The notes beneath the pieces were generated by a model, which was not told where the DNA came from, did no database searches, and worked only from the letters and a program-made list of their open reading frames with translations. DNA of 64,000 nt from a virus (Duplodnaviria; Heunggongvirae; Uroviricota; Caudoviricetes), in IMG/VR virus record IMGVR_UViG_3300045988_154997, positions 32,001 to 96,000 of that record. One strand, 5' to 3'. Position numbers and translations under genes: made by a program. Below, piece by piece: positions 3,346-59,154 of the stretch (positions are counted from its first letter, which is position 1; the number at the start of each line of letters is the position of its first letter).

Positions 3346-3440
3346 GCGTTTTTCCTTTGTTTTCTAATGAGCTTTCAACTTCTTATATAAATATACCATC
3401 AAATATCGTAAGTGATTACTTATCATTAAGGCTATTCTAA

Positions 3441-5549
3441 TCACTTCAAAATGATACGAGATAGTTCAGTAACTACAGATGAACCAAGACTATCAACGCT
3501 CGTTACCAGGGCATGGTTTGCGTAAAATCTCTCCGGTGCGTCAGTCATGATGCCAATTGCCATCAAATCAATGTCAGTCTGCGTTTCAATTTGCTTCGCA
3601 ACCGAACGCAAATGAGCGTCAAAACCTCTCCCAACAGCCCACGGCGCGCCATCGCTTAGAACAAGCATGATCTTCTTGTCCTCCATGCGACCAGAAAATA
3701 ACGATGCAAGGCTGGCTATGCTTTCACCATCCACGTTATTAAGAAGTGGGAATGTGTAGCCTACGCACCCCATACGTGAGCGAACTTCGCGAGAATTGGC
3801 CTTTTCATTCCAATTTTTGATGATAGGTAGCATTAAAGATTCAAAGCGAGAGAACTCATACTTGATTGCCTTAAGCTCTCCTGCTGCCATATGACTACCA
3901 AATGTTGTGAAGCCGGTGATAATGTTGGGAACATTTATTCGATCAAGCGCATCGGCGATGGTATATGCACTTGCAAGAGCCAGTTTAATCGTTTCGCCGC
4001 TCATTGAACCTGATAAATCAATCACTTGTTGAACACAGGCGTTAACGGCCTTAGATTCTTCTTTTTTACGAAACACGCGATCATCATTCATTGCTAATCT
4101 GTAGATACTAGAACCATGAATGCGCCCCCGACGCTGGCCCGGTATAAACTGAACTCTGTTTCTGCTTGCAATTGCACGCTCCAGGTCTTTTGCCAGCGTC
4201 GACGAAACACCTGACGAAAGATGCTTTTCAATATATTTGTCGAAGAGTTGGTTGCCTTCAGGAACGATGCGATAACGGCTGATTGGATATCCACCTAAAT
4301 CAATATCGGAGAATGTTTTAATAAGCCGTTTGATATGGGCTTCTGCCTGATCAATCGAACCGATGAAGTCGTATGAGCGATTGTATGGCCTGTATTCGCT
4401 TTTCGAGCTTTCTGTTAACTCGCTTTTAATCGTTTCGGATAGTGCATCTTCTGTCATGCCTCCGACTTCATCTTCCATGCTATCAAGCTCCTCTAAAGCC
4501 TCTTCCAGACTCATTTTGGACGGAGTGGGAATGTCTGAAGAGCCGTCTTCTGCCGTTTTTCTTTTTTCGTGATCCGAGGTAGTTGCTTCTGTCGTCGCGC
4601 TATTGGAAGTATCAGAATCTAATACCTCTTTATCATTTTTTGTATCATCGAATATTGTTTCTGATGATTCAGAATTATCTGAATCATCACTATCGTTATT
4701 ATCATGTATGTACTTACCTTGTGACTCATCATCTATAGATATGTGGTTATCTAGCATCTCATGTGTCTTGTGATCTTCATTGTCTTCATTACTTTCTCCA
4801 GAGGAATCCGCTTGGTCAGCGTCTGAAGGATCGGGAGTTTTTCCCGGAGCTGACTCCTTACCTTTGCTTTCACTTTCAGTGTCTTTGAGGATCTTAGCTA
4901 TGGTCGCAGCCACCTTTACACAATCCTCGGTGCAGGACATGTTACGCGCGGCCACATCGATACCATGTTTTTTTAATAATGAAATTGGTTTCTCAATGAC
5001 AGGCCAGTATTCATCCATGAAATCTACGAACGGTGCTTGGCCATCCCAGGCTCTTACAACCGGACAGAGAAAGAAGTTTAGAAAAAGCGCGCGCTGATCT
5101 TTGCCACAATAAGCAATAGCCTCTGAAGCCTTTGGTTTAAAGACTTTTTCGATTATAAGGCGCTGAGTTGCCATCAGATTACGTCTTGTTCCGTTAAAGA
5201 CCTGACCCATTTTTCGCTCGATGAACACGTCTTCTAAGGCATTCCATAGCGACCAGGAAGGAACGCGTCCTTTTTCTCTCATTTTGTTGGACACACGAAT
5301 ATCGGTAAACAAAATGTGAGCAACCTCATGATCGAGAAATCCGCGCACAGCATTCATCAATGCCGGTGTTGCGTTATCCGGGATTGATGGGATGTTTACG
5401 AGAATTGGCTCTCCATCATCGTTATAGCGTACATAAGCGTCGTCCCCTCGTTCTGCAACAGGGATGTTTTTACCTGAAAGGAGAGCGACTACTCGTTTTA
5501 CACTGTCACGGAAGTCCTGAACCTCTTTGATGGAACGTTTTTTAGACAT
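3441..5549 (-). CDS. von Willebrand factor A domain protein, CobT-like partner of the AAA+ ATPase
   Basis: MIDAS-like motif VIDLSGSMSGE near the C-terminal third; long acidic Asp/Ser/Glu-rich low-complexity linker; 702 aa. Confidence 0.65.
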   Translation of the reverse strand: MSKKRSIKEVQDFRDSVKRVVALLSGKNIPVAERGDDAYVRYNDDGEPILVNIPSIPDNATPALMNAVRGFLDHEVAHILFTDIRVSNKMREKGRVPSWSLWNALEDVFIERKMGQVFNGTRRNLMATQRLIIEKVFKPKASEAIAYCGKDQRALFLNFFLCPVVRAWDGQAPFVDFMDEYWPVIEKPISLLKKHGIDVAARNMSCTEDCVKVAATIAKILKDTESESKGKESAPGKTPDPSDADQADSSGESNEDNEDHKTHEMLDNHISIDDESQGKYIHDNNDSDDSDNSESSETIFDDTKNDKEVLDSDTSNSATTEATTSDHEKRKTAEDGSSDIPTPSKMSLEEALEELDSMEDEVGGMTEDALSETIKSELTESSKSEYRPYNRSYDFIGSIDQAEAHIKRLIKTFSDIDLGGYPISRYRIVPEGNQLFDKYIEKHLSSGVSSTLAKDLERAIASRNRVQFIPGQRRGRIHGSSIYRLAMNDDRVFRKKEESKAVNACVQQVIDLSGSMSGETIKLALASAYTIADALDRINVPNIITGFTTFGSHMAAGELKAIKYEFSRFESLMLPIIKNWNEKANSREVRSRMGCVGYTFPLLNNVDGESIASLASLFSGRMEDKKIMLVLSDGAPWAVGRGFDAHLRSVAKQIETQTDIDLMAIGIMTDAPERFYANHALVTSVDSLGSSVVTELSRIILK

Positions 5550-5647
5550 GGCTAATCCTTTGTTATGAAAACAAATTATTTACTAGTGTGTTTAATGTAG
5601 CACTGCGCGAACAGGGAACTAAGCCATTCGCGCAGGGAGAAGAGGGG

Positions 5648-5860
5648 TTAACAGATTCTGACGGCTAAAGACCCGGAGCCGGTATTGAGAAGCGTGAAGC
5701 GTTTGTTGTTAAGTTCGAATATAAAGCCAGTGGTGTCATTCACACCAACCTGAATCTGCTCATTCGGTAGATCGGTAAGGATGTCTGTTACACACTCAAC
5801 AGCTAATTTTTGTACGTGTCCGATCTCAAGAGCGATTAGGCTGGAAATAGTGGTGTTCAT
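5648..5860 (-). CDS. hypothetical protein (70 aa)
   Basis: ORF only; no recognisable motif. Confidence 0.25.
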   Translation of the reverse strand: MNTTISSLIALEIGHVQKLAVECVTDILTDLPNEQIQVGVNDTTGFIFELNNKRFTLLNTGSGSLAVRIC

Positions 5861-6066
5861 TCAATCAATCCATTCTAACTTATACTATGGTAAGGAATAC
5901 TACTAAAATTTGTATCAATACTGAATACATTCATATCATATGCAAGTTACTTTTCTTACCTATTTTGGGCTAATTTTTCTCCGTGCAATGGCCTTTAACC
6001 GGTCTTTTAAGTGCCTATCGAAAAAAATGATAATAGCTTTACAACCCTAACCTTTGATGTAATATC

Positions 6067-6080
6067 GGTAAGCACTTACC
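6067..6080. promoter_or_regulatory. perfect 14-bp palindrome GGTAAGCACTTACC, candidate operator upstream of the HTH gene
   Basis: Read directly; lies about 32 nt upstream of the ATG at 6112; same core as the recurrent intergenic motif. Confidence 0.5.
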
Positions 6081-6111
6081 AGAGAGAATTGAACGCGCAA
6101 AGGTTGTGACC

Positions 6112-6498
6112 ATGTCTGATAACAAGATTGAATTTATAGAAAGTCGCTACGCTGCTTTTATCGCAGGGTTGATTGAATCCTCACCTATGAGCCAGGCCCA
6201 GATAGCCAAAACAATTGGGTATAAAAACGCCAACAACCTTTCTTTAATTAAAAGCGGCAAAATTCCTTTGCCTATCGATAAGGTTCGTCCGCTGGCGCTG
6301 GCACTGGGTATTGAGCCAAGTCGTCTTATGATGATGGTGCTGGAAGAACGCCAACCCGAACTCGCAGCATTTTTATACAAAGAAGGCACTGCTCCTCTTA
6401 ACGAGGACGAAAAACAGGTTCTTGCTGCATATAACGAGCGATTCGGTAAAGAGAAAGGCGCATCACAAAAGGTTGTTGAGGCCATAAAGTCTCTATGA
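6112..6498 (+). CDS. HTH (Cro/CI-type) DNA-binding protein
   Basis: SQAQIAKTIGYKNANNLSLIKSGK resembles an XRE-type helix-turn-helix; ATG at 6112 with AAGG RBS preferred over the track's GTG at 6106. Confidence 0.5.
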   Translation: MSDNKIEFIESRYAAFIAGLIESSPMSQAQIAKTIGYKNANNLSLIKSGKIPLPIDKVRPLALALGIEPSRLMMMVLEERQPELAAFLYKEGTAPLNEDEKQVLAAYNERFGKEKGASQKVVEAIKSL

Positions 6499-7596
6499 AA
6501 AATTTACACGAATAAGCTCTGTTGATAGACGATCTCCCTTAAATTTGTGGTCAATTTCGTCTAAATCCGGTTGCTCTACGATTGATGCGATGTACGTCGA
6601 GAAACTTTCTAAGGCGTCTCGCATCTCGTCCATATAATCGTGCCGGTCGTAGACCCGATCTATCCCCTCAAGACTGTGGTTCATGATTTTACGTGATACC
6701 TCCTGGCTTATGCCTAATGCTGGGAAGTAACTACGCGCAGTACGGCGCAAATCTCGGGGTGTAAATGGCTCAAGCTCCATCAGTTCTGGTCGTTCCAGAA
6801 TACGACGTAATGCCTGGGCTATTGCCACTTTAGACATAGGAAGGTCTTTCCCGATTTTTTTATTCGAAGGCACGAGCCACTGGCTGTCTTTACCATATTC
6901 GAACAACTCTTCAATACATGTGCGCATTAATGAGCTTAAAGGCAGAGAATGCTCACGGGCAGATTTGTTCCTCTTGCCTTGATTCCAAACCCCACGCTTA
7001 AGATTGAACTCACTTTTTTTAGCCCGCAGTACTTCGTCAGGTCGTCTTGCGGATACAAGACATAGCCTGGCCGCCCATTTTGTACCAGCACACACATTGA
7101 AGTAGTCCCATATATTCCAGAACACCCATACCTCTGCGTCGGTCAGCTTCCGCTCGCGAGGTGTGGGCTTTGCGCCACCGGCAACTTTGTTAAGTGACAT
7201 ATCGTTTAACGGTGACACGTCGATCATCCCCTGGAAGGCGCACCAGCTGAGGAACTGCTTCATCAGAGAGAAAACGCGGCGACCCATAACAATTTTGCCA
7301 TCCAGTATTAGTGGGTTGACCAGTTGGTTCACCATGAACCTATTAATATCACTTACTTTTACATCGGCAATGTGCGGCAAAACATGTATCAAAATACAAT
7401 GAACAGCGATCTCTGGCCGACGTCTTGTTATCAGCAGAGATAAGCGAGTGAATAACATGAATGCGTCCGAGAATCTCATGTCATTGCTGACCTGGGAGAT
7501 CATAACGGCCTGCATTTGAGATGCTCTTTCGAGATACTCAATCGCCTCTTTTGAGGTGTTCTCCGCAGCGCGTGCTCTGTCAAAGCTATTTTTCAT
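6493..7596 (-). CDS. int: tyrosine site-specific recombinase (integrase/resolvase family)
   Basis: C-terminal catalytic signature DLRRTARS ... NHSLEGIDRVYDRHDY (R..T.R / H / R..Y pattern of tyrosine recombinases); 367 aa. Confidence 0.75.
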   Translation of the reverse strand: MKNSFDRARAAENTSKEAIEYLERASQMQAVMISQVSNDMRFSDAFMLFTRLSLLITRRRPEIAVHCILIHVLPHIADVKVSDINRFMVNQLVNPLILDGKIVMGRRVFSLMKQFLSWCAFQGMIDVSPLNDMSLNKVAGGAKPTPRERKLTDAEVWVFWNIWDYFNVCAGTKWAARLCLVSARRPDEVLRAKKSEFNLKRGVWNQGKRNKSAREHSLPLSSLMRTCIEELFEYGKDSQWLVPSNKKIGKDLPMSKVAIAQALRRILERPELMELEPFTPRDLRRTARSYFPALGISQEVSRKIMNHSLEGIDRVYDRHDYMDEMRDALESFSTYIASIVEQPDLDEIDHKFKGDRLSTELIRVNFS

Positions 7597-7694: not shown

Positions 7695-7727
7695 AATGAT
7701 TCCATACATAGTAGGTATGGAATCATT
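7695..7727. repeat. lox/dif-like recombination core candidate: 13-bp inverted repeats around a 7-bp spacer
   Basis: AATGATTCCATAC-atagtag-GTATGGAATCATT, perfect arms, about 100 bp from the recombinase start codon. Confidence 0.5.
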
Positions 7728-7804
7728 GGGGGGCGATTTTTTTGAATCTATCTTTTCGAACGGAGGGGTTGGCTTCACTTTTATCTTCATCACCTAAAAG
7801 GTAA

Positions 7805-8986: not shown

Positions 8987-9232
8987 TTATAATGTACTCA
9001 CCAGAGCGGCGAATTCCGTATAGCCACCGATAGATTCGCCATTTACGAACACCTGCGGTATGGTCTCCACCGGCTTGCCAACCAGGGCGCTCAATTTCTC
9101 TTTGTCTATCCCAGCAGACACAATATCGATGTATTCGTAATCGCCAAAACCGTGACCGTGAAGCTGCTTCGCCAGCTCGACCGCACGTTTGCAGTATGAG
9201 CAGTTATCTCGTCCATAGATAGTGATCGTCAT
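8987..9232 (-). CDS. glutaredoxin-like protein
   Basis: 81 aa; N-terminal MTITIYGRDNCSYCKRA with a CxxC redox motif (CSYC) and overall glutaredoxin/NrdH-like layout. Confidence 0.75.
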   Translation of the reverse strand: MTITIYGRDNCSYCKRAVELAKQLHGHGFGDYEYIDIVSAGIDKEKLSALVGKPVETIPQVFVNGESIGGYTEFAALVSTL

Positions 9233-9372
9233 TGCTTTGCCTCGTTATGCGCTTCGCTGGGGAACGTGTAGCGGTTAGTGAAAGAGCTGAGGTGGTAGTG
9301 CTCGTGAATGTATGGATTTGACTTCTGCACCTGACGAGATGCGCGACGCGCATGTTTACATTTATTTCCCAT
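9229..9372 (-). CDS. small hypothetical protein (47 aa), translationally coupled to the glutaredoxin gene
   Basis: Internal ATG at 9372 preceded by GAAAGGA RBS; stop overlaps the glutaredoxin start (ATGA). The longer track ORF would start inside the conserved intergenic motif. Confidence 0.3.
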   Translation of the reverse strand: MGNKCKHARRASRQVQKSNPYIHEHYHLSSFTNRYTFPSEAHNEAKQ

Positions 9373-9428
9373 ATTGAGTCCTTTCAAGTGAGTATCCGAA
9401 AGAACTATACAGTTAACGTGCGTAAAAA

Positions 9429-9448
9429 GTAAGTGCTTACCTATCATT
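9429..9448. promoter_or_regulatory. recurrent intergenic motif GTAAGTGCTTACCTATCATT (palindromic core GTAAG-TG-CTTAC)
   Basis: Exact 13-mer CTTACCTATCATT also at 15558-15570 and 27927-27939; sits in the divergent region between the glutaredoxin operon and the 273-aa gene. Confidence 0.5.
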
Positions 9449-9521
9449 TATTGATAGAAGAATAGCCGCCTGTCGTGTGATACTATTTACAGAACTAAAC
9501 TGGCTTTCCACAAGGTGTAAA

Positions 9522-10343
9522 ATGACTATCCTTGAAAATCCTGATGCGAATGTTGAATCTGTTTATAGTCTTCATCCAACCACGTTGTTTCATTTTACAA
9601 AAAACGAAGATGCTTTCTATAGCATATTGGCTGAGAAATATTTTAAACCATTTCTTGCTCGCGAGGAAATAAGAGGAGTCGGGGGACGCAGGAGGTTTGC
9701 AGTACCAATGGTATCGTTTTGTGACATAAAACTATCACAAATCAGAGATCATAGCGGAAAATATGGAGAATTCGGTCTTGGGCTAACTAAGTCTTGGGCG
9801 GAAAAGAAAGGTCTACACCCAGTTCTATATATGAATAAGAGTAGTGAAATATTTTCTAAATACAATGCCAGAATTCGACTTATTAAAAATAAGTTGGTGC
9901 CGCTTTGGAAGGCTAGAGGAAATTTAGATACCAAAAACAGAATAGAGTTTGAGAAATTGAAAGCAGAATATTCTGATCTATATAATTTACTGCGTTATAT
10001 GAAAAATTACAGAGGCAAGCTAGAGCGAAAAGATAATAAAACAATAGAGAATTATATATATGCAGACGAGAAAGAGTGGCGTTATGTGCCAGCTCCTTTT
10101 ATTGGTGATTTATGGCCTAGTCTGAGTTTGGAGCGTGTTATCACTTCTGATGACAAAGCAAAAATTAGCTCAAAATTTTCAAAGTTTGGCATTGATTTTG
10201 AGTTCAATGATATAAAATATATACTTATACCTAAAGAACAACATATCCAAAAGCTAATTAACTTTCTCTCAGGTTTAGATGGATTTGAATCTTCAATTAT
10301 TAGCAAAATTCTGACCATGGATAAAGTAAAGCAAGATTTTTAA
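9522..10343 (+). CDS. DUF2971/Abi-like protein (tentative family assignment)
   Basis: ATG at 9522 with AAGGTG RBS. Motifs LFHFTK...FYSIL, FAVPMVSFCD...HSGKYGEFGLGL and C-terminal EKEWRYV echo the LYKY / MWSHY..HKGFCIGF / E.EWR pattern of the DUF2971-like protein at 23116-23835. AT-rich. Confidence 0.45.
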   Translation: MTILENPDANVESVYSLHPTTLFHFTKNEDAFYSILAEKYFKPFLAREEIRGVGGRRRFAVPMVSFCDIKLSQIRDHSGKYGEFGLGLTKSWAEKKGLHPVLYMNKSSEIFSKYNARIRLIKNKLVPLWKARGNLDTKNRIEFEKLKAEYSDLYNLLRYMKNYRGKLERKDNKTIENYIYADEKEWRYVPAPFIGDLWPSLSLERVITSDDKAKISSKFSKFGIDFEFNDIKYILIPKEQHIQKLINFLSGLDGFESSIISKILTMDKVKQDF

Positions 10344-10369
10344 TTTTTGGTTTAACGGGAGCCTAATTA

Positions 10370-11581
10370 GTGTCAATATTTTTAAGCGAAAAGGAAATGC
10401 AAAATTGGATAATTGACAAATTATCTGATCAAGATGGATTATATAATTCAATCATCAATATTGATAAATTAAATGAATTTAATCCGAAAAGACCCGAAGA
10501 GAAAAAAATTAAGGAGAGTTATCAGTTTTGTTTAAAGAACATAACATTGTTACATTTAATGACAGATGATGAGAATATCTCAGCAACAAAATCTGAGATA
10601 TTAAGACCTGATGTCGTTGCTTATTCAACAGAGAATGAATCCTTAGTTCTTATTGAGTTAAAAAATTTTTCAACACCAACAAGGGAAGCTGGAACTGAGC
10701 TAGTGGCATATGCTGCGGAACTAAAAAGTTACTTGTCATACTTGTCTGATGGAGATATTACCAATGTACTTATATCACCTGACTGGCCACCTTTGGTTAG
10801 ACACTTTATTTTTAATATGATCGTGTGGCAGAAGAAAAACTTTCTATGTTTAGAACCTTGCTATGATTTACAAGGTAACGTATCACTTACTCCTTTAGAT
10901 ATTAATAAATTAGTTATTGCGGAAGAAGCACTCAAGTTCTCATTTCGTCATCTTGGCGGGTTTCATATATGTTTGTATGATGATGAAATGTATAATCAAC
11001 CGACTTCCACTTCTCGTTTACATTCGAAATTGAATGTTATTAAAGCCAGCATGGCAAAAATGTCCTCAGACGGTGAAAAGACTAATAGCCATGGGTTTGC
11101 TATTTTATGTAGAAATTTGAACGAGAGAACTTTAGCACCATATACGATTACTCTAGTTAATGTTTCTGCGTTTTCTTCCATAGAGCGATACTTTCATTCG
11201 CCACAAATATCCAATGCTTCTCAACTCCCTAGAATAGGACAAAAAATTTATGACATTTACACTCATTACCAACCATCAGGTTTTGGGGCATCAATGTCGA
11301 AAATTTACAATTCTGGGAGGGCATATTTAGAAAAAATTAATTGCAAGCCGCGGATCGAGGTTATAGACACCTGGGATGTATTGCAAGTACATACACATGC
11401 GCCTTATATGGAAATGGTTCATATTGAAACGTGGGGAGTTTTTAAAGAAAAATTGATTGAAGGTCTAAATGAATGTTATGAGGATGAATATTACACACCT
11501 GATTTTAACGATGTAGATTTTTGCATGGTGTGTATTGAATCCTTAATTGACCAGAATTATGAATTTATAAAACTTTTTTGA
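10370..11581 (+). CDS. PD-(D/E)xK nuclease-like protein with unknown C-terminal domain
   Basis: N-terminal ILRPDVVAYSTENESLVLIELKNFS fits a D ... E-x-K restriction-endonuclease-fold signature; GTG start at 10370 with GGGAG RBS; 403 aa; about 33% GC. Confidence 0.5.
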   Translation: MSIFLSEKEMQNWIIDKLSDQDGLYNSIINIDKLNEFNPKRPEEKKIKESYQFCLKNITLLHLMTDDENISATKSEILRPDVVAYSTENESLVLIELKNFSTPTREAGTELVAYAAELKSYLSYLSDGDITNVLISPDWPPLVRHFIFNMIVWQKKNFLCLEPCYDLQGNVSLTPLDINKLVIAEEALKFSFRHLGGFHICLYDDEMYNQPTSTSRLHSKLNVIKASMAKMSSDGEKTNSHGFAILCRNLNERTLAPYTITLVNVSAFSSIERYFHSPQISNASQLPRIGQKIYDIYTHYQPSGFGASMSKIYNSGRAYLEKINCKPRIEVIDTWDVLQVHTHAPYMEMVHIETWGVFKEKLIEGLNECYEDEYYTPDFNDVDFCMVCIESLIDQNYEFIKLF

Positions 11582-11759: not shown

Positions 11760-11846
11760 TGGCGGAGAGTAATGGAATCGAACCATCATCGTTTGCACAA
11801 TGGGACGATTTTCAAGACCGCTTGAGCACCATGCTCCCTACTCTCC
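11760..11846 (-). tRNA. tRNA-Ser (anticodon TGA), type II with long variable arm, CCA encoded
   Basis: Minus-strand sequence GGAGAGT...CGGTCTTGAAAATCG...GGTTCGATTCC...ACTCTCCGCCA: 7-bp acceptor stem, anticodon loop CTTGAAA, T-loop TTCGATT. Confidence 0.7.
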
Positions 11847-12070
11847 GGCCGTTGTGGTGGCCGGTACTGAATCTCCGGCATACGGTGCAGCCAATTAGGA
11901 CTACGGACGATCACCGCTCGCGAAAGGGAAGATTTGCGGCCGCATTTCCCTAACATCCAAGAAAGCTATCGCATCAGTCTGCGAATCCACCACAACGGTA
12001 AGATCACTACCTTTCGACCAGTCATTGTGCACATGAACGACGATTAACCGTAATGATCTTATCGTTGTAT

Positions 12071-12147
12071 TGGTGCCGGTTAACGGACTCGAACCGCTGA
12101 CATCCTGCTTACAAGGCAGGCGCTCTACCAACTGAGCTAAACCGGCA
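12071..12147 (-). tRNA. tRNA-Thr (anticodon TGT), CCA encoded
   Basis: TGCCGGT-TT-AGCTCAGTTGGTAGAGC-G-CCTGC-CTTGTAA-GCAGG-ATGTC-AGCGG-TTCGAGT-CCGTT-AACCGGCA-CCA; canonical cloverleaf. Confidence 0.85.
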
Positions 12148-12150
12148 ATT

Positions 12151-12237
12151 TGGTGGGGAGTGATGGAGTCGAACCACCCGAGTCGCAATGACAGTAGATT
12201 TACAGTCTGTCCCGCTACCTCTACGGACTAACTCCCC
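12151..12237 (-). tRNA. tRNA-Tyr (anticodon GTA), type II, CCA encoded; two non-canonical pairs in the anticodon stem
   Basis: Anticodon arm and variable arm AGACTGTAAATCT.C.GTCAT closely resemble E. coli tRNA-Tyr as recalled from memory; acceptor GGGGAGT/ACTCCCC; T-loop TTCGACT. Confidence 0.65.
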
Positions 12238-12242
12238 TAAAT

Positions 12243-12317
12243 TGGCGATGGTGGGTGGATTCGAACCACCGACCAGTTGGTTAACAGCCAACTGCTCTAC
12301 CGCTGAGCTACACCATC
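12243..12317 (-). tRNA. tRNA-Asn (anticodon GTT), CCA encoded
   Basis: GATGGTG-TA-GCTC-AGCGGTA-GAGC-A-GTTGG-CTGTTAA-CCAAC-TGGTC-GGTGG-TTCGAAT-CCACC-CACCATC-G-CCA. Confidence 0.85.
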
Positions 12318-12857: not shown

Positions 12858-13094
12858 ACTTCATCGGAGGGAACTCTCATGTTCCCTCCTGCGTTCTGCA
12901 ATCACACTCGCTCAGTGTGTCCCATTTCGGTAACGAGGCTGGAAACTGACCTCGCTGGTGTTTGGCTTATTAGGCTACTGCCAGATAGACTTCTTCGTTT
13001 GCACTTGTATTTAAGTTCAAACAGTCGCGTCTCAACGAAAACAAAGTCATCTTATACATAAAAGATAGGTAAGTAAATACTTATTATTGTATTT

Positions 13095-13385
13095 TTATTC
13101 GGTTGTGACTTTTTTGATCAAGGCCACTCTACGACTAGGTGTTCTTGTGATGGTGGCAGTGAATTGTTTCGCTTGGATAGTAATGGTTTCGTTCTCCTTA
13201 AGTTGCCCGTAGCGAGTTTCCACCAGGGTGCCAAGACGCCACAGACCATCATCGATACGTTTATGACTAGCAAATTTAATCAGCAACAGTTTTACGACTA
13301 ACTGACCTACGTAAAAGGCGAATGCGACTCCGGCCGCTAAGAAATAGGTGACCAACCACCATTCCCAAGAAGTTAACTTGCTCAT
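13095..13385 (-). CDS. small membrane protein (96 aa)
   Basis: N-terminal hydrophobic helix WEWWLVTYFLAAGVAFAFYVGQLVV; ATGA overlap with the upstream small ORF. Confidence 0.45.
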   Translation of the reverse strand: MSKLTSWEWWLVTYFLAAGVAFAFYVGQLVVKLLLIKFASHKRIDDGLWRLGTLVETRYGQLKENETITIQAKQFTATITRTPSRRVALIKKVTTE

Positions 13386-15532: not shown

Positions 15533-15599
15533 AATTACCGCCAGAAATAATCTTGTGCTTACCTATCATTATTTGCGTAAAAAACGACACACAGAGAGC

Positions 15600-16382: not shown

Positions 16383-16507
16383 ACCAACTCCTAGCTAACG
16401 GATGAAAGTATTCTTACAAAAACTTAAGTATGTATATACTTATCATTTTAGGTGCAATAGTTCTTTATACTAAGATGCCGGGCGTATCCGCAGCCCAGCA
16501 TTCACCT

Positions 16508-20895: not shown

Positions 20896-20938
20896 GTGCT
20901 TTCCTTTGTTTTTTAAACAAATTGTTTTCTAGTATTAG

Positions 20939-21679: not shown

Positions 21680-21798
21680 GTGGCTCACCTGATAGGTAGT
21701 TACTTACTTATTGCAATGAGCGGATGATAGCGACTGGTGGCAGTTTTTGGAAGTGGAAACGGAAGGGAATGTGTCTGGGAAGTTGGCATAGAAAAAGA

Positions 21799-21851
21799 CC
21801 TGCTTCCGTATAAATAATAATAAGTAACTTAGTATTTATATACAGAAGCAG
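21799..21851. promoter_or_regulatory. about 54-bp conserved intergenic element with terminal inverted repeats (CCTGCTTC ... GAAGCAGG); copy 1 of 2
   Basis: Near-identical copy at 55859-55912 upstream of terS; contains TAAGTAACTTA palindrome and TATATAC. Confidence 0.5.
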
Positions 21852-21876
21852 GTTCCAAATTCAACCAGCAGGATGC

Positions 21877-23835: not shown

Positions 23836-23879
23836 TAGGGAACCTATAGAAAGAGGTGCCAAGCAGCACCTCAATAAAA

Positions 23880-27865: not shown

Positions 27866-27934
27866 GAAAAGTCAAATCGGGATGGCGGATTTATATCACA
27901 TTTCACCCTTTTGTTGTAGGTGTGTACTTACCTA

Positions 27935-28168
27935 TCATTCAGCATTGCAACGAACTGATGAGAAAGCACCTACTCCTACCCATCGCCAGTTATAGATGCT
28001 ACCCGCTTTGTATAAGGTATAGTCGTTCACTTTTTTAACAGCATATATGGGTATGACTGTCTCCTGTCCACCAATGATAGCCTCACCGTAACATATAGGT
28101 GTCGGCAATTTCTGGCAGCCAGTAAGAGAGAGAACAACAGCTATTGTTAGAAATAATCTTTTCATCAT
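27935..28168 (-). CDS. small lipoprotein (77 aa); possible superinfection-exclusion protein (Llp/Cor-like by context)
   Basis: Signal peptide MMKRLFLTIAVVLSLTGC with lipobox LTGC; immediately downstream of the tail-fiber locus. Confidence 0.5.
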   Translation of the reverse strand: MMKRLFLTIAVVLSLTGCQKLPTPICYGEAIIGGQETVIPIYAVKKVNDYTLYKAGSIYNWRWVGVGAFSSVRCNAE

Positions 28169-33397: not shown

Positions 33398-33489
33398 GTT
33401 GAATATGCTCCTTGATTTGGTGGGCTATCCTTGCCCACCATTAAGTATGTACCTACTTATTTTTACCGATATAAATATTTTTTTCTACA

Positions 33490-40331: not shown

Positions 40332-40380
40332 CCTGTCAGCGCCACAATGATAGTAAATTAGTACTTACTTATCCAGATAC

Positions 40381-46789: not shown

Positions 46790-46838
46790 TGATGGAAAAC
46801 TCCTTTTTCCGTTAATTCTACGCATTCATTGCGCTAAC

Positions 46839-46856
46839 AGTAAGTATATACTTACC
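46839..46856. promoter_or_regulatory. recurrent palindromic motif AGTAAGTATATACTTACC in the leader of the major tail gene
   Basis: Palindrome GTAAGT-ATAT-ACTTAC about 50 nt upstream of the 46789 start. Confidence 0.5.
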
Positions 46857-46863
46857 GATTAAC

Positions 46864-50369: not shown

Positions 50370-50442
50370 TTCTCGCTCCTACAAAAAGGGTGGGCGTATA
50401 GCCCACCCTTTAACATAGATAACTACCTATCTACCACACTGA

Positions 50443-51343: not shown

Positions 51344-52231
51344 TTACTTAAGTCCAATTTTCCCCAGACCGGAGGCCAACTTATCCATAGTCGACTTGTT
51401 CTTCGGTTGGGATATTGTGTAGGTCGATTTGGAATGTGAGCCTACACCCTGCTTGGCTTCGCTACGCATCAATGCGTCAGCTTCCGGATCTGCCCGCACA
51501 ATGCGTTCAATCGCGGATTCAAACGGCAACGGCTTACCTTCACCGTCAACCAGAACAGCTCGTTCTTTGTGACCTGCCGGTTTGTCATAACCCACTACGC
51601 TACCGTCTTCACCCACTTCAAAATGAGAACCGTAGATCACGCGGGCTTTTGCCGGGGTCATCAGAACTTTGTCACGTAGGAAGAGAGAGTTACTGAAGGA
51701 AGCGCCCACGGTCATCTCGACTAATTGAGATTTCAGTGATGCGTTTTCACTTTCCAGTGCTGCATAACGTTCGTCACGCTGTGCCAGCTCTGCCTGGTGT
51801 GCTTCGATCATCTGTTTTTTAACAGCATCGAACTCACCACGACGCTCCAGTTCAGCTTGCTCCGCCTCACGACGTGCGTTTTCTGCGGCCTGTTCAGCTT
51901 CTAAAAGCTGGCGAGCACGAGCCGGATCGATATCACCGTACTGAGCAAGCTGATCGGCCAATGTGCGCTCTTTCTCTTTGCGCTTCATGTTCTCCTTCAG
52001 CAGTTCAGCACCAGCTTTCTTGGTTTTACGAAGTTCGGCCAGTAACTCTTCCTGAGTCATGCCAGCGTATTCGTCATCGCCCTTCGGCTGCTCTTTTTGT
52101 TCCCCCTGTTTGTCAGGATCTTGTGTACTCTGCTCATTATCAGCAGCTACACCGCCAGCGCCTCCACGCTCATGCGCTTCAGCGACATCCATCAGACCAC
52201 GACGGGCCAAAAGCATTTGCCACAGATTCAT
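51344..52231 (-). CDS. scaffolding protein
   Basis: Charged coiled-coil-like protein (EAEQAAENARREAEQAELERR) between portal and capsid genes. Confidence 0.55.
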   Translation of the reverse strand: MNLWQMLLARRGLMDVAEAHERGGAGGVAADNEQSTQDPDKQGEQKEQPKGDDEYAGMTQEELLAELRKTKKAGAELLKENMKRKEKERTLADQLAQYGDIDPARARQLLEAEQAAENARREAEQAELERRGEFDAVKKQMIEAHQAELAQRDERYAALESENASLKSQLVEMTVGASFSNSLFLRDKVLMTPAKARVIYGSHFEVGEDGSVVGYDKPAGHKERAVLVDGEGKPLPFESAIERIVRADPEADALMRSEAKQGVGSHSKSTYTISQPKNKSTMDKLASGLGKIGLK

Positions 52232-52252: not shown

Positions 52253-53827
52253 TCACTCGTTCTCTTGAGTAGATGAGTCCCCATTCCCTCGGGGTTGATC
52301 TTGCCCGCTTTCTTGGGCTGCACCACGATCATAAGTAAGTACTGACTTATTTTCAAGGGTATTTAGATCATTTTTTGGAGGAAAATTCAAGAGATCTTTA
52401 TCAAATTCCTTTTTCATCGCCTCAGTAATGTTCGGGAAAATCTTCTCAATAAGCATTTCCATCTGGTGACGACGTACAGAGTCCGGTGCCTGAAGTAATG
52501 ACAGTTTCTCGGCAACAGAAAATTCATCAGTAAGGCCACGAATATCGAAACTTTCTGGATACGCAATTAAAGAGTGGTCTTCGTCCAGATCTACCCCCAT
52601 CCATTTCGCAACCAGTAGCATGATTTGGCGTTCAGCCCTTTCCAGACGCTCTGCTTTTGTGACAAGCAAGCTATTTACACGCTGGAAGTCATACATTTTT
52701 GCGGCACCAGATGAATTATCGATTCCCTGTGCGTTGTCCTGCTTCGTTCGCTCACCAGCTACACCAACTGAATGGTAGATTTCGTTAATCACCGTCTTAA
52801 TCGTAGTGATGATCATCTGAGCTTGTTTCGGGTCTGGTGACAGATAAAACGGCTGGTTTCCACCTTCAGAATCGTAGGTGAAGACTCGCTTTGTGCCCAT
52901 TTCAAGCACTTTAGTGTGGTTTTCATCACCAGGTAAAAGCGACTGTACCGGTATAGCCAACTGGCTAAATGTCTGATCCTGAATAATGGCATCAAGGTTT
53001 GACAGATAGTTTGCAACCGCACGATCAAGATAAGCGATATCATCGATCAACGATGGGCTGAAATACGGTGATTCACTTTCTCCAATACAATCAACAGGAA
53101 ACACAGGAACTACGCCGAGATTATGCTCACCGCTATCCTCTAAAATAACTTTTGCCTGACGGCGACCTGCTCCACCAGCGCCCTTCTTCACTTCCTCACG
53201 GAACAGATACCACTCGTTTTGTGTCCACAGACGATAACGTTGGTATTCCTGACCTGTAGAAGTAAAAGGATCTGCGTCATCACGAGCGACTTCCACAATT
53301 AACGCCCACAACATATTCCCGTCGTCGTCCCATGCCACATCCAGCATTTGCTGAGGTGAAATCCAGTAGGCGTAGGCGCGAGCATCTTTCTTTTTCTCGT
53401 CAGCTACTGACTCAACATCACCACTCATCGTGCTATCGACAACAACCCATATGCGACCGTAAATAGACGACTGCAAATCAATAGCGGCCATAAATGAGTC
53501 AATAGAGGCATTCTGGCGAGTCGCACGTTTCCAGAAATTGCGGATCTGCTCTGGTGCCTCTTCGATATTTCTATGAATGTCTTCTTTAAAGAGATATTTG
53601 TTGATGAGGTTTACCACCTCACGAGTGTGGTTGAAGCGATAAGCACGTTCAACTCGCTCCTTAAACTCCTGATCTCCCTCTTTAAAGTAACGAAAGATAT
53701 TGTCTGTAAACCAACCACGCCCGCCAGCGTAAGTGCTGGCGAGGAAGTCCCAATGTTCTTTTTTCTTTTCGTATTCCGGGTGGCGTCGCGCCACCAGATC
53801 CTTAATTTGTTTGTCGTTCAATTCCAT
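52253..53827 (-). CDS. portal protein
   Basis: 524 aa immediately downstream of terL; synteny and size. Confidence 0.65.
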   Translation of the reverse strand: MELNDKQIKDLVARRHPEYEKKKEHWDFLASTYAGGRGWFTDNIFRYFKEGDQEFKERVERAYRFNHTREVVNLINKYLFKEDIHRNIEEAPEQIRNFWKRATRQNASIDSFMAAIDLQSSIYGRIWVVVDSTMSGDVESVADEKKKDARAYAYWISPQQMLDVAWDDDGNMLWALIVEVARDDADPFTSTGQEYQRYRLWTQNEWYLFREEVKKGAGGAGRRQAKVILEDSGEHNLGVVPVFPVDCIGESESPYFSPSLIDDIAYLDRAVANYLSNLDAIIQDQTFSQLAIPVQSLLPGDENHTKVLEMGTKRVFTYDSEGGNQPFYLSPDPKQAQMIITTIKTVINEIYHSVGVAGERTKQDNAQGIDNSSGAAKMYDFQRVNSLLVTKAERLERAERQIMLLVAKWMGVDLDEDHSLIAYPESFDIRGLTDEFSVAEKLSLLQAPDSVRRHQMEMLIEKIFPNITEAMKKEFDKDLLNFPPKNDLNTLENKSVLTYDRGAAQESGQDQPRGNGDSSTQENE

Positions 53828-53853
53828 TTGAATAACCTTGGATAATTACTTAC

Positions 53854-55110
53854 CTATCGAGAACCACCAAGAATAACACGGTTTTTGACTGGATACCTAC
53901 GATGTACTGGATAGCCCAATGCGTCTGCACTATGCTCAATGCCACCTGTCTTATCCATATCTCGTGTTCCAGGCTTGTAGATGACTTTTTCCAGTGAATC
54001 AATCAAATGCTTGCACTTCGGATCGATATACAGCCGGATATCTCCAGATGCGGACATCAGCATTCGGTTAACAGCATTAACACGATCCGCAATTGGCGGG
54101 TGCTTTTTCGAATAATCGACACGTAAGAATCCCTTCTCTTTGAATATGTCTACGTCAGACTCCCCACGAGCATGTTGGCGATAAGCACCTGCCGGATCTG
54201 GAAATACCGTTACCTGTGATTTCCAGCGCCAGAAGCGTCTCTCAAGCTCATCACAAACTTCTGCCGTGTTAGAGGAAAAGAGCACCAATTCATCAATTGC
54301 CCATAGCTCACCATTTGGCTGAGGTTGCAAAATTACTGAAGACATCGGGTCAATGTTGAAGTCCTGCCCTACCCATATAGGCAACCGAGGGTTGAACTGA
54401 AGCGGTTTTACATGCACGTTACGATCGAACGGGTAGTAAACGCGCCCGGACATGTTCTCAAAGCTGGCCAGGTACTCCTGAGCGAACGATTTGGGGTCCA
54501 TATCGTTCTTAGCAGCTTCAATTTCCGCCGTAGGTACAAACGGAGAATCGGCAGTTACAAACTGCCAGCTCTTCCACTGTCCCTTTCTTTGCAGCTCTAC
54601 GTTCTGGCCTATAGTCCACAGTTTGTGAAATTCCGAGAAGCCTTTTGGCGTACCAATGATCAGTGCACCGCCGCGTGTCGATGAAAGAGTAGGTCGTAAC
54701 ACCTTGTACCAGGTGTCAGCCTTCATATCCTGAAATTCATCAAGCACTACAAAATGCAACGCTACGCCGCGCAGAGTGTCAGGCTTATCAGCACCTTTGA
54801 GGGCGATCTCCGAACCGTTCTTCAACACGATTGTCATCGTGGTGTCGTTCTTTTTCCTAACCCACTTACGAGGCAGAACTTCCTGTAGATCGTCCCATAA
54901 AATCTGGCGAGCCATCTGGTAAGTAGGAGCGACATACCAGACCCTTTGCTTTTTTTCCTTTGCCGCCGCACGAATAATAGTGGAGATCGACAACCGGGAT
55001 TTTCCCCAGCGTCGACCAGCACAAACAACTTTAAATCGATGCGGAGACTGGAAGACTTTCATCTGTCCAGAATGCAGTTGCACAAGACTGAGCGAGGACG
55101 GGATTGCCAT
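53854..55110 (-). CDS. terminase large subunit
   Basis: Walker A CAGRRWGKS and Walker B VVLDEF; 418 aa; ATGA overlap with the small subunit gene. Confidence 0.85.
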   Translation of the reverse strand: MAIPSSLSLVQLHSGQMKVFQSPHRFKVVCAGRRWGKSRLSISTIIRAAAKEKKQRVWYVAPTYQMARQILWDDLQEVLPRKWVRKKNDTTMTIVLKNGSEIALKGADKPDTLRGVALHFVVLDEFQDMKADTWYKVLRPTLSSTRGGALIIGTPKGFSEFHKLWTIGQNVELQRKGQWKSWQFVTADSPFVPTAEIEAAKNDMDPKSFAQEYLASFENMSGRVYYPFDRNVHVKPLQFNPRLPIWVGQDFNIDPMSSVILQPQPNGELWAIDELVLFSSNTAEVCDELERRFWRWKSQVTVFPDPAGAYRQHARGESDVDIFKEKGFLRVDYSKKHPPIADRVNAVNRMLMSASGDIRLYIDPKCKHLIDSLEKVIYKPGTRDMDKTGGIEHSADALGYPVHRRYPVKNRVILGGSR

Positions 55111-55742: not shown

Positions 55743-55858
55743 AGATCCCTCTAAAACACACAGAGCGCGTCCATGCGCTCTAAAACAACTTGTTTACTGC
55801 ATCTGCTAACCAACTTGTTTTCTGGGGTGTTTAATTAGGTCTGGCATGTCTTACGAAG

Positions 55859-55912
55859 CCTGCTTCCGTATATATTTAATAAGTTACTTATTATTTATAT
55901 ATACAGATGCAG
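55859..55912. promoter_or_regulatory. about 54-bp conserved intergenic element with terminal inverted repeats; copy 2 of 2, upstream of terS
   Basis: CCTGCTTCCGTATATATTTAATAAGTTACTTATTATTTATATATACAGATGCAGG versus the copy at 21799-21851. Confidence 0.5.
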
Positions 55913-55937
55913 GTCTTTAAATAAGCTCCCAGACCGA

Positions 55938-56204: not shown

Positions 56205-56213
56205 GGCAAATCC

Positions 56214-57104: not shown

Positions 57105-57766
57105 GAATGGACCTCATCATGACTACCATTGTGATATTCCACCTTCACGCGTTCTTTGTAGTGCTTGGTGATCTGCATATCCGGGCGCAGCGCGTTCTTC
57201 AGGTCTTCGTGAGTCGTCGCCACCATTACCGTCGCACCAACCTTTCGAGCGGCACGCTGGAGGTTAGACGCCACAACCTGAGCGGTTACACGGTCGAGAA
57301 CAGCGCCGAACTCGTCAGCAGCCCACACTTTAGCGCCTGACTCAATCAGTTTGGCAATCTTGAGACGATATTTCTGACCGTCTGACATTTCAGAAGGCTT
57401 GCGAACAAACAGATATGCATCGTTCAGACCAGCCATAGATAACAACCCAAGCGCATCGCTGGTCGTTTTGCCCAACTGATCGATGACGTTAACCTCATTA
57501 TCGAAGGTAAAATCATCGATGGAGGCTACAGACAGCCCTTCATCCTTCATCTGTCGTTGCAACTCGCGCAGCACAACGGATTTGCCGGAACCGGATTGGC
57601 CGGTGATGTACACCACATCGCCCTGCTTCACTTCCAGCTCCAGATTGTCGTAAAGCGTCCACTCTTTTTCGTCCAGGCCAAGCCCGAACGACTCAGCGAT
57701 TTCCAACGTGCGCGTGGTTTTATTTACGCGTGTCTGAAACGATACGTTGATGATGTATTTGCTCAT
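57101..57766 (-). CDS. stand-alone ABC-type ATPase domain protein
   Basis: Walker A GQSGSGKS, ABC signature LSDGQKYRL, Walker B VWAADEF, H-loop ATTHE; 221 aa. Confidence 0.7.
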   Translation of the reverse strand: MSKYIINVSFQTRVNKTTRTLEIAESFGLGLDEKEWTLYDNLELEVKQGDVVYITGQSGSGKSVVLRELQRQMKDEGLSVASIDDFTFDNEVNVIDQLGKTTSDALGLLSMAGLNDAYLFVRKPSEMSDGQKYRLKIAKLIESGAKVWAADEFGAVLDRVTAQVVASNLQRAARKVGATVMVATTHEDLKNALRPDMQITKHYKERVKVEYHNGSHDEVHS

Positions 57767-58464
57767 GCAGCCATCTCCCCGGAAGAGATCTTCTCCGCAT
57801 ATGCCACAAATGCGTCTACCCCGCTTTCTCCCGTCATTTCTTCCATGTGGGCAAGCAAATCACCAACAACAATGGCAGAGCCAGCAGGAAGCGTTTTAAA
57901 GCCCAATACGTCGACAACACGTACTTCTTCCGCTGCAACTTCACGACTGATCTCGGTGTGTTCATCCTTCTGTCGTTTAGTTTCTTCGCCAAGATCGATA
58001 ACTAGCGAGTCGGTGTCCATTTCTTCTGTCATGCTACCAACGAGAACATTCAACTCACGCTCTTCAAAGCCGAAAACCTCGATATCGTCCAGAACAAGCG
58101 ACTCAAGCTCTTTCTGTAGCTTAATTGCATCGTAATCAATGCTGGCAAGTCGGTTATCTTCAAGGCGCTTCGCACGAACCTCGTCATCACTGAGATCATC
58201 GCGAACAATAACCGGTACGCGCTCAAGTCCAGCAAAAATTGCAGCCTCACGGCGGCCGTGGCCAGTAATAATTACGTCGTTCTTATCGACCGTAATTGGC
58301 TGGTCAAATCCGCGCTTTTTAATGGCTGCGGCTAGATCTCGGATCTGCTGTTCATCATGCTTTTTGGCATTCATCTCATAGGGAATAAGATCTGCCGGGT
58401 CGCGATATACGATTTCAAACTTTTTGGTCATTACATACGCTCCTTGTAGTAGTCGACCAGCCAC
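57763..58464 (-). CDS. ParB N-terminal (ParB/Srx nuclease-like) domain protein
   Basis: ITVDKNDVIITGHGRREAAIFAGLERVPVIV; acidic C-terminal half. Confidence 0.65.
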   Translation of the reverse strand: MAGRLLQGAYVMTKKFEIVYRDPADLIPYEMNAKKHDEQQIRDLAAAIKKRGFDQPITVDKNDVIITGHGRREAAIFAGLERVPVIVRDDLSDDEVRAKRLEDNRLASIDYDAIKLQKELESLVLDDIEVFGFEERELNVLVGSMTEEMDTDSLVIDLGEETKRQKDEHTEISREVAAEEVRVVDVLGFKTLPAGSAIVVGDLLAHMEEMTGESGVDAFVAYAEKISSGEMAA

Positions 58465-59129
58465 ACCAGAGCCTCACCAGCGTTCTCCATTTCATTACCG
58501 GTGTTAATAGCCTGCTCTTTGATGATGTTTTTTATGGTTTCTGCAACACGATCTGACGCATCGAAAGTTACTTTGAAGCGCATGGTCTGATGTTCCGCAC
58601 CCACACGTTCGGTTTTCTCTCGTTTGTCGGTATCGACAGGCTCATCACTACCACGAGACAACGCCTCCAGTGCTTCAAGGTCGATTGCCGCCTCTTTTGC
58701 TAAAACCATCGAGATTTCGTCGTCATACGGGGCGATTTCAGACAGTTGATAGTCAAGTTCTGACTGAATTTCTTCAATGAAGCGTTGCAATGCGATTTGG
58801 TCGTCTTCACCGTATCGCTCGTTGTCCACCAGTGACATCTGTTTAGCTACGACATCGCTAATTTTGCCCACAGAAAGCACCGGAACCGTTGAAATTCCTT
58901 GCTCAATAGCAGCACGCCAGCGATGTTCGCCGCCGAGGATTTCAAAAAATCCATCTTCAAGTTCACGAGCCAAAATTGGCTTAAAAAAGCCCAATTTTTC
59001 GATAGAACCTTTCAGTTTTTCAAAATTCTGCGCACCAACCGAATTGGTGTTCCAGGTATTCGGGCGAAGGTTGGCAACATCAACCTGCAAAATCGTGATT
59101 TTTACATCCATTTTATTGCTACAATCCAC
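58431..59129 (-). CDS. ParB N-terminal (ParB/Srx nuclease-like) domain protein, second copy
   Basis: FFEILGGEHRWRAAIEQGISTVPVL; overlaps the downstream ParB-like gene by 34 nt. Confidence 0.65.
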   Translation of the reverse strand: MDCSNKMDVKITILQVDVANLRPNTWNTNSVGAQNFEKLKGSIEKLGFFKPILARELEDGFFEILGGEHRWRAAIEQGISTVPVLSVGKISDVVAKQMSLVDNERYGEDDQIALQRFIEEIQSELDYQLSEIAPYDDEISMVLAKEAAIDLEALEALSRGSDEPVDTDKREKTERVGAEHQTMRFKVTFDASDRVAETIKNIIKEQAINTGNEMENAGEALVWLVDYYKERM

Positions 59130-59154
59130 TAAGTAATCACTTACTTATTATAAT
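59127..59154. promoter_or_regulatory. recurrent motif ACTAAGTAATCACTTACTTATTATAAT in the divergent region between the ParB-like operon and the helicase
   Basis: Shares TAAGTAATCACTTAC with the element at 3408-3427. Confidence 0.45.

Follow-up and report, generated by a model that had tools for sequence, protein, structure and literature searches.

A 20-bp dyad dispersed through SSU5-like phage-plasmids and a helix-turn-helix protein as its candidate repressor

The window and a dyad between its genes

The DNA analysed here, hereafter called the window, is a stretch of 64,000 nucleotides (nt) taken from IMG/VR record IMGVR_UViG_3300045988_154997 (positions 32,001 to 96,000). It belongs with the SSU5-like phage-plasmids of E. 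coli (95-96% identity to Escherichia phage CMS-2020a and to phage Cyrano, the plasmid-prophage of strain LF82), and its gene order is that of Cyrano and of Salmonella phage SSU5. The minus strand carries most of the genes, with the terminase and structural genes running from ~55.7 down to 29 kb, followed by the lysis, partition and replication genes; a module comprising an integrase gene and a helix-turn-helix (HTH) gene ends the series at 6.1-7.6 kb. The SSU5-like family also includes pMT1 of Y. pestis, pHCM2 of S. Typhi and the pKpn group of Klebsiella, and, according to protein searches, 830-990 plasmids in PLSDB carry markers of the family. In this study, we characterized a palindrome that recurs between the genes of this element, together with the Xre-type HTH protein that may recognize it.

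A recurrent palindrome had been reported in this DNA by a first-pass annotation. It is real and enriched, but its definition was wrong. The proposed core, GGTAAG-N(0-12)-CTTACC, has a single occurrence in the window (6067-6080), and the true consensus is a 20-bp dyad, ATARGTAAGT-ACTTACYTAT (frame ATARGTA-N6-TACYTAT), with the ideal form ATAAGTAAGT-ACTTACTTAT and a frequent extension, AATGATA...TATCATT. We named this dyad motif A and a second dispersed dyad motif B; for motif A, the full dyad sequence (ATAAGTAAGTACTTACTTAT) is distinguished from a truncated core (GGTAAGCACTTACC). Variable-spacing, hairpin-like forms (GGTAAG-N2/N6-CTTACC) were considered and rejected, as every such site fits the fixed frame because of the TAAG periodicity of the motif.

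In a whole-window survey, the top over-represented k-mers all derived from motif A (ATAAGTAA, 12 occurrences versus 1.8 expected; ATAGGTAAG, 6 versus 0.28; ATAAGTAAGT, 5 versus 0.07), and the exact 13-mer CTTACCTATCATT was found three times, as had been reported (9436, 15558 and 27927). The frame ATARGTA-N6-TACYTAT with at most two mismatches gave 13 matches versus 0.46 expected, a number reached by 0 of 100 shuffles. A symmetric 20-bp weight matrix, from whose building SSU5 was excluded, gave 15 window hits of at least 12 bits versus 0.1 expected. Once overlaps were merged, the window contained 13 distinct sites of at least 14 bits and two weak copies (Table 1), and both halves of the dyad were similar in information content. 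By k-mers, matrix and shuffles alike, the frequency of the motif is far above that expected from base composition. De novo motif discovery, which had been suggested as a check, agreed: unbiased expectation-maximization on intergenic DNA reached the same dyad from all twelve best seeds, with log-likelihoods of 120-126 versus 68-86 on shuffled intergenic sequence.

Twelve of the 15 instances listed in the first-pass annotation are genuine dyads (14-28 bits). The one at 5956-5967 is not an instance (-10 bits), the one at 25001-25016 is a half-site (-1 bit), and the one at 6067-6080 is weak but conserved across relatives; the sites at 52331-52350 and 50415-50434 had been overlooked. Copies had been described as nearly all intergenic, and 12 of the 13 strong sites do lie in non-coding DNA or in doubtful open reading frames (ORFs), which together make up 7.8% of the window. 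The distance of 10-80 nt upstream of a start codon was roughly right, but the actual span is 3-99 nt and the spacing is not fixed. Placement in operon leaders did not hold, several copies being located 3' of a gene and before a terminator. The short upstream ORFs beginning with MIGK, for which a leader-peptide or coupling role had been left open, are by-products of the AATGATA extension (11-15 codons where read), and most copies have no ATG there.

The motif was compared across SSU5, Cyrano, 80 related IMG/VR loci, a divergent Klebsiella element (L009), the relatives L100 and L101, and Acinetobacter elements. Results showed 28 hits of at least 12 bits in SSU5 (0.1 expected) and 26 in Cyrano (0.3 expected); overall, there are about 27-35 dyads per SSU5-like genome, and about 15 in the window. 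In SSU5, whose genome is 88% coding, 27 of the 31 sites of at least 9 bits are intergenic, and the distance from site to start codon ranges from -11 to 131 nt. Sites of SSU5 and of the window share the same junctions, namely terminase/portal, the portal 3' end, after the capsid gene, before the tail-tube gene, between tail genes M and L, before the tail-fibre gene, the holin gene and the helicase block, and the ParB/helicase divergent region. Motif A is present in all of the 80 related loci except two short ones, as well as in L009, and the consensus is preserved among orthologous sites that differ from one another in sequence. At the same junctions, a variant half-site, ATAAGTCAC, is found in relatives whose large terminase is 70-75% identical, and L100 has mixed half-site types inside single sites. 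Virulent relatives of the same gene order (e.g., Pseudomonas phage nickie, with a 50% identical portal) have no motif A. An equivalent motif was searched for in nickie and none was found, its intergenic regions showing ordinary sigma-70-type promoters. Motif A is real and selected.

Table 1. Motif A sites and associated features, in window positions
Feature	Position	Strand	Score (bits)	Context	Relatives and remarks
Motif A	3404..3423		15.1	between cobT-like (3441-5549) and cobS-like (2110-3345) genes	SSU5 ortholog 45124
Weak dyad	6064..6083		7.7	core GGTAAGCACTTACC (6067-6080) at the HTH gene promoter	
Motif A	9425..9444		25.9	divergent region, 32 nt upstream of the AbiGi gene (9477-10343)	
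Motif A	13065..13084		27.6	3' end of the operon ending with 13095-13385	SSU5 ortholog 41773; ~750 nt ahead of the tRNA cluster
Motif A	15547..15566		16.9	14 nt upstream of gene 15062-15532	
Motif A	16424..16443		23.4	41 nt upstream of gene 15600-16382; then extended -10-like TGTAAGAAT	gene behind the site: Cyrano ortholog CYRAN_34, expressed in the lysogen
Motif A	21692..21711		26.3	directly upstream of 20939-21688, first gene of the helicase-primase block	
Motif A	27916..27935		22.7	50 nt upstream of the holin gene (27530-27865)	SSU5 ortholog 27474
Motif A	33441..33460		26.1	43 nt upstream of the tail-fibre gene (29099-33397); then GC hairpin	
Motif A	40353..40372		21.8	between minor tail genes M (40381-40716) and L (39600-40331)	orthologs: SSU5 15589, Cyrano 15529
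Motif A	46840..46859		16.1	14 nt upstream of the tail-tube gene (46043-46825)	orthologs: SSU5 9067, L009 5702, L100 17702
Weak motif A	50415..50434		9.5	between the major capsid gene and a terminator-like hairpin	stronger orthologs: SSU5 5471, Cyrano 5443
Motif A	52331..52350		24.6	within the portal gene 3' end, 99 nt upstream of 51344-52231	conserved in 38 related loci
Motif A	53838..53857		14.2	fills the 26-nt large terminase/portal gap, overlaps the terminase stop codon	orthologs: SSU5 (2031), L009, L100, L101
Motif A	59129..59148		24.3	90-bp divergent region, ParB-like operon versus helicase operon	TATAAT boxes on both strands at 59147-59154; variant copies at this place in L100 and L101
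Xre-type HTH protein, 128 amino acids, candidate repressor	6112..6498	+		weak Pfam HTH_19 match; phrog_8 'transcriptional regulator'	
FljA-family gene	61530-62054	+		PF03614, E 2.5e-84	
Motif B	20916-20926, 24944-24954, 55784-55794			three window copies	

The HTH gene and its variation with the dyad

The HTH gene was found in 865-995 PLSDB plasmids, with the taxonomic profile of the family and always adjoining the integrase gene, and in 9 of 12 phage records of the family. Only SSU5, which was isolated as free phage and has kept all its sites, and one truncated 84-kb record lack the gene. The HTH protein had first seemed excluded because SSU5 lacks the gene, which was then taken for an accessory one; this view was overturned by searches of plasmids and phages, which place the HTH gene in the core of the phage-plasmid family. 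Virulent relatives such as nickie, which are devoid of motif A, do not carry it either. In SSU5 (41.8-42.8 kb), the entire integrase-HTH-tRNA-cargo segment (window 5.6-12.9 kb) is missing and ~28 motif A sites are kept; SSU5 being a virulent deletion derivative of a temperate phage-plasmid would fit this picture.

The predicted HTH promoter consists of a -35 box TTTACA (6038-6043) and a -10 box TAATAT (6060-6065). The core GGTAAGCACTTACC begins 1 nt past the -10 box and thus spans the point at which transcription is predicted to start. Ahead of the HTH gene, conservation among the elements of E. coli, Klebsiella (pJN2-26) and Y. pestis (pMT1) is strongest in the block TTTACA-N16-TAATAT-N-(G/A)GTAAG(C/T)ACTTACC. 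A repressor operator would be expected to lie over the repressor's own promoter and to be dyad-symmetric over 14-20 bp; here the core at that promoter is invariant in three genera, and the dyad spans 20 bp.

HTH proteins of the family are 56-65% identical overall, but wherever the motif is kept the recognition helix, G-Y-K-N-x-N-x-L-S-L-I-K-x-G, is conserved too. In an Acinetobacter element whose HTH protein is 42-48% identical and has Arg instead of Asn at helix residue 39, the dyad reads nnnAGTCAGT-ACTGACTnnn within the same 20-bp frame. Its 12-mer occurs 10 times in 40 kb versus 0.00 expected, mostly between genes and with copies upstream of the HTH gene. A second Acinetobacter lineage (HTH protein 38% identical) carries AGTAAGC-GCTTACT, with 7 matches versus 0.08 expected, while Moellerella and a second Klebsiella lineage have A-type sites upstream of their own HTH genes. 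Three dyad variants go with three HTH lineages, as would be expected of an operator and repressor changing together; the co-variation rests on these three lineages, in which other genes diverge in parallel.

Expression was assessed from the published RNA sequencing of the Cyrano lysogen (PMC9928086, S1 Table; background 9.8). The Cyrano HTH protein is 99% identical to that of the window, and its gene, CYRAN_45, reads 96 in the lysogen (PMC9928086). The Cyrano genes located directly behind A sites are at background (genes 3, 4, 6, 17, 21, 22, 31, 35, 48, 53, 56, 60, 65, 69, 72, 79, 83, 91 and 119), and the expressed maintenance and cargo units, i.e., toxin-antitoxin pairs, parA, repA and humD-like genes, mostly have no A sites. 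From CYRAN_34 to CYRAN_35, RNA falls 11-fold over a 56-bp gap that contains an A site (orthologous to window site 15547..15566) and no terminator. In the ParB/helicase divergent region, the ParB-side start is predicted inside the dyad; the ParB-like operon is silent and the helicase operon is expressed.

Candidate roles of the dyad

We consider it about an even chance that motif A serves as a repeated operator for the Xre-type HTH repressor encoded by the element itself, acting at promoters and possibly as a roadblock between genes. A site for a dimeric regulator, possibly the HTH protein, had already been suggested by the first-pass annotation and remains the best-supported reading after these analyses. 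We infer that the protein binds the dyad, that binding represses and that intergenic copies block elongation. In the plasmid-prophage state, a dimer of the HTH repressor would occupy the dyads and keep the virus genes silent. A dyad lying over a transcription start would block initiation, as predicted for the repressor's own promoter and that of the ParB-terminase operon, and the truncated core at the HTH promoter would provide weak autoregulation. The dyads in short gaps between lytic genes would probably be roadblocks or insulators that keep transcription of the constitutively expressed maintenance and cargo genes from reading into the structural, lysis and replication genes of the shared strand.

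Several observations weigh against this reading. The site at the HTH gene's own promoter matches the full dyad at 7.7 bits only. The classical term operator fits only some copies, because most have no recognizable sigma-70 promoter at a fixed distance. Besides the 11-fold fall, several other RNA drops at A-site junctions coincide with adjacent intrinsic terminators. Two units behind a strong A site are expressed, CYRAN_34 (44) and the helicase operon (46 and 114); both have a good -10 box downstream of the dyad, which covers the -35 region only, and these exceptions call for position-dependent repression or even activation. The Moellerella HTH protein has Ala at helix position 39 and yet goes with an A-type motif, so that the Asn/Arg difference at this residue is suggestive at most. 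Finally, the same phyletic pattern or lysogen expression is shared by a 92-amino-acid protein (60756-61034) and by two ParB-like proteins.

Part of a phage-specific promoter, the other proposal of the first-pass annotation, seems distinctly unlikely to us; each copy would start a transcript, the dyad being an activator site that replaces the -35 element in lytic growth or serving a phage-directed polymerase. Copies do precede most lytic gene blocks, several directly after intrinsic terminators, and an extended -10-like sequence (TGTAAGAAT) stands 5-6 nt past the dyad at three sites. In Cyrano, RNA rises ~9-fold from CYRAN_33 to CYRAN_34 across an A-site gap and, with partial induction, also rises at the 11/12, 55/56 and 59/60 junctions. 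The Lpa-dependent late promoters of P1 combine a -10 box with a 9-bp inverted repeat centred near -22. A similar arrangement is seen at the helicase promoter, where a perfect TATAAT immediately 3' of the dyad places the dyad centre near -22, and at a few other sites with a -10-like hexamer, but most motif A copies have no such hexamer there. A fixed -10 or -35 element was sought up- and downstream of the dyad and none was found at a constant offset in the great majority of sites; because of this, the copies are not regarded as operon leaders or phage-specific promoters. Positions beyond the dyad carry less than 0.5 bit of information and, with an A at -3 in 26 of 45 sites and a T at +22 in 25 of 45, the flanks are symmetric and give motif A no direction. 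Some sites lie 3' of terminators and others between a stop codon and a terminator; the copies behind the capsid gene and ahead of nrdA are examples of sites upstream of a terminator. Several copies reach to within 0-14 nt of a start codon or the corresponding ribosome-binding site, and the SSU5 and Cyrano annotations contain no RNA polymerase or sigma factor. That many copies adjoin a ribosome-binding site or run over an upstream stop codon would suit a dyad acting in RNA as an intercistronic hairpin, either a processing or stabilizing site or a translational operator, possibly bound by the FljA-like protein (61530-62054), a member of an RNA-binding family with an Hfq-like fold. The fall of RNA across an A site without a terminator is consistent with such a role, as are lineage variants that alter both arms and keep the pairing (A6/T13 to C6/G13). 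Yet the predicted hairpins are weak or absent (free energy 0 to -7.6 kcal/mol, mean z -1.5), covariation is seen in just 2 of 10 mirror pairs, and the mixed half-sites of L100 break the pairing. An Rfam 15 scan of the window at the gathering scores returned three tRNA matches and none for motif A. At the HTH and ParB promoters, an RNA could not hold both arms because the predicted start lies inside the palindrome. The arms are AT-rich and lack the T-run of an intrinsic terminator, separate terminators adjoining some sites. The FljA-like protein was rejected as the binder of the dyad: a Klebsiella element has the same dyad with an FljA-like protein of just 36% identity, and L100 carries the dyad with no FljA-like gene in the 21 kb covered. 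Motif B, which the fliC leader resembles, is a far better candidate target for this protein than motif A. Recognition is probably at the DNA level, sequence being conserved rather than structure, and we regard an RNA role as very improbable.

The dyad could also be the site of another protein of the element, with the HTH gene a mere member of the regulon; this we hold to be unlikely. Candidates are the ParB-family proteins (58431-59129 or 57763-58464), as a KorB/Noc-like silencer, and the 92-amino-acid protein. ParB-family proteins such as KorB and Noc bind uninterrupted palindromes, of which there are from a dozen to dozens of scattered copies, and KorB of plasmid RK2 has dispersed OB operators. 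These would resemble motif A in that a dozen or more dispersed palindromes, conserved through the centre and some of them distant from promoters, silence many operons; OB differs in being a 13-bp palindrome. A strong dyad lies in the promoter regions of both the ParB-like operon and the operon of the 92-amino-acid protein. However, the ParB-like genes are at background in the lysogen and are conserved in nickie-type virulent phages without the motif. The 92-amino-acid protein (plus strand, just after the UvsW-like helicase gene) is among the top-expressed element genes in the Cyrano lysogen (CYRAN_117, 114 versus 9.8). It is kept by position in every motif-bearing lineage examined, with positional homologues in L009, L100 and L101, and has no counterpart beside the helicase of the motif-less nickie; but it matches no known family or fold and has no DNA-binding domain detectable in Pfam, NCBIfam or PDB. 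Moreover, neither candidate explains why the sole family phage without the HTH module is a free-phage isolate. The 92-amino-acid protein was also considered as a ribbon-helix-helix protein, from a pattern in its sequence and the likeness of motif A to the P22 Arc operator. This was rejected (hhalign probability versus Arc/Mnt 0.06%; no Pfam, NCBIfam or PDB match; AlphaFold2 predicted local distance difference test score, pLDDT, 55), and no ribbon-helix-helix protein was identified in the element. The Arc operator ATGATAGAAGCACTCTACTAT, located between mnt and arc, resembles motif A (ATGATAG..AAGCACT..CTA(C)TAT), and its sequence and location were confirmed in a P22-like contig (L104, 10774-10794); motif A has 2 extra bp per half-site, and the resemblance is taken to be coincidental.

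An HTH repressor acting at many sites would have parallels in known systems, of which that of the Cluster A mycobacteriophages is the closest. Their repressor (L5 gp71 and relatives) acts at operators and stoperators (PMC9283540, PMC6550527). As in Cluster A, with more than 20 sites genome-wide in promoters and in short gaps inside lytic operons, there are 26-28 copies of motif A per genome, many of them in intra-operon gaps (terminase-portal, 26 nt; M/L), and the site consensus differs by lineage along with the repressor. D29, a lytic relative, has been described as derived by deletion from a temperate parent (PMC5712189); SSU5 parallels it in lacking the HTH-integrase module and retaining the sites. 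Stoperators differ in being 13 bp long, asymmetric, oriented with transcription and bound by a monomeric two-domain repressor; motif A is of a 20-bp perfect-dyad type with symmetric flanks, and its small Xre-type HTH protein is presumably dimeric. The host here is Gram-negative, the element is a plasmid-prophage, and the elongation block is proposed only. By analogy, motif A might work like the Cluster A stoperators without being a member of that system; it is not classed as a stoperator because stoperators are asymmetric, orientation-dependent and monomer-bound.

The C1 repressor of phage-plasmid P1 reportedly has many dispersed operators. Compared by description rather than by sequence, both cases would involve a plasmid-prophage with one repressor for many scattered operons and more than a dozen operators. 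The C1 operators are asymmetric, span 17 bp and lie at the promoters for early functions, the late genes being controlled indirectly through the activator Lpa, whereas motif A is also found inside structural and lysis blocks. With the lambdoid CI/Cro system, the element would share an HTH_3/Xre protein, a dyad operator, autoregulation at its own promoter and lineage-specific immunity, but lambdoid phages have ~6 operators at two sites near the repressor gene versus ~30 over 100 kb here, and the 128-amino-acid HTH protein of the window has no S24 peptidase domain.

Nothing on the motif sequence or on SSU5 regulation was found in the literature searched (subscription literature being outside its scope), in which lysogeny maintenance of the SSU5-like family is not described; within that scope, the site and the candidate repressor are new for this family. 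SSU5-like elements are among the commonest phage-plasmids of Enterobacteriaceae and include carriers of antibiotic resistance in Klebsiella and E. coli. If the proposed reading is confirmed, it would explain how maintenance and cargo genes are expressed on a strand shared with silent lytic genes. A defined operator, a candidate repressor and lineage variants would make immunity, induction and incompatibility directly testable and would provide a simple sequence marker to type SSU5-like elements. If intergenic copies are roadblocks, stoperator-type silencing would be convergent and would extend well beyond mycobacteriophages.

A second dyad and other features of the window

The FljA family comprises phase-1 flagellin repressors. 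The FljA-like gene is core to the SSU5-like family, even in the non-flagellated Klebsiella and Y. pestis, and an Acinetobacter relative has an analogous gene for a 179-amino-acid protein annotated as Hfq. In the AlphaFold2 model of the FljA-like protein (pLDDT 81), two Sm/Hfq-like domains are arranged in tandem, and the top PDB matches are without exception Hfq structures. Motif B, AGAAAACAAnTTGTTTAA(A)GGAG, is a dispersed dyad; the genomes of SSU5, Cyrano and L009 contain 12-14 copies each. It is located ~10 nt past sigma-70-like -10 boxes and directly abuts ribosome-binding sites, in front of terS, parA, the helicase gene and numerous early or accessory genes. The core of motif B, CAAGTTGT, also occurs in the Salmonella fliC leader (L093, L097), immediately ahead of the ribosome-binding site. 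Motif B is probably the target of the FljA-like protein, or else a classical +1 operator. Together, motif B and the FljA-like tandem-Sm protein point to a separate layer of translational control. A more speculative extension, which we consider rather doubtful, is that two silencing layers are stacked over the ~100 kb of virus genes, with a small dimeric HTH repressor that would act at ~30 sites both at promoters and as genome-wide roadblocks to elongation, and with FljA-family translational repression of ~13 motif B leaders of early or accessory genes. The first layer would be a stoperator-like system beyond actinobacteriophages that uses a symmetric site, and the dyad variants would define immunity groups.

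Some genes of the window are not at these places in Cyrano and SSU5. They are anti-phage defence and cargo genes located at 9477-11581 (+), 21877-23073 (-), 23116-23874 (-) and 17155-18300 (+), the set comprising AbiGi (and its likely partner), PD-T7-5, a PDC-S31-like protein and a Sel1-repeat protein. A tRNA cluster (11760-12317, minus strand) carries Ser, Thr, Tyr and Asn genes and is 79-93% identical to clusters of unrelated phages (P7, D6 and N4-like).

Other repeats were also observed. A perfect 13-7-13 inverted repeat at 7698-7732 (AATGATTCCATAC ATAGTAG GTATGGAATCATT), ~100 nt upstream of the tyrosine-recombinase gene (6493-7596), has single arms near 1667, 12510 and 13523 and looks like a lox/dif-type recombination site for this recombinase. 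An AT-rich palindrome of ~55 bp with GC clamps at its ends (CCTGCTTC...GAAGCAGG) is present in two copies (21797-21852 and 55858-55915), to which the weak motif-A-like matches at 21820 and 55879 belong. It is likely a strong terminator, because lysogen RNA falls ~50- to 230-fold at the Cyrano copy, between genes 30 and 31. In an Acinetobacter phage-plasmid (L212), a sigma-70 family protein is encoded at 9101-9766, between genes for a MoxR-like ATPase and dnaE, and the same lineage carries 5-9 copies of an asymmetric repeat, CGGAGAAAATGTACCGTTA; no counterpart was seen in the window. Another palindrome of the window, AAACGTGAATACTTACGTTT (63496-63515), lies within an ORF (63304-63552) and is kept in 15 related loci.

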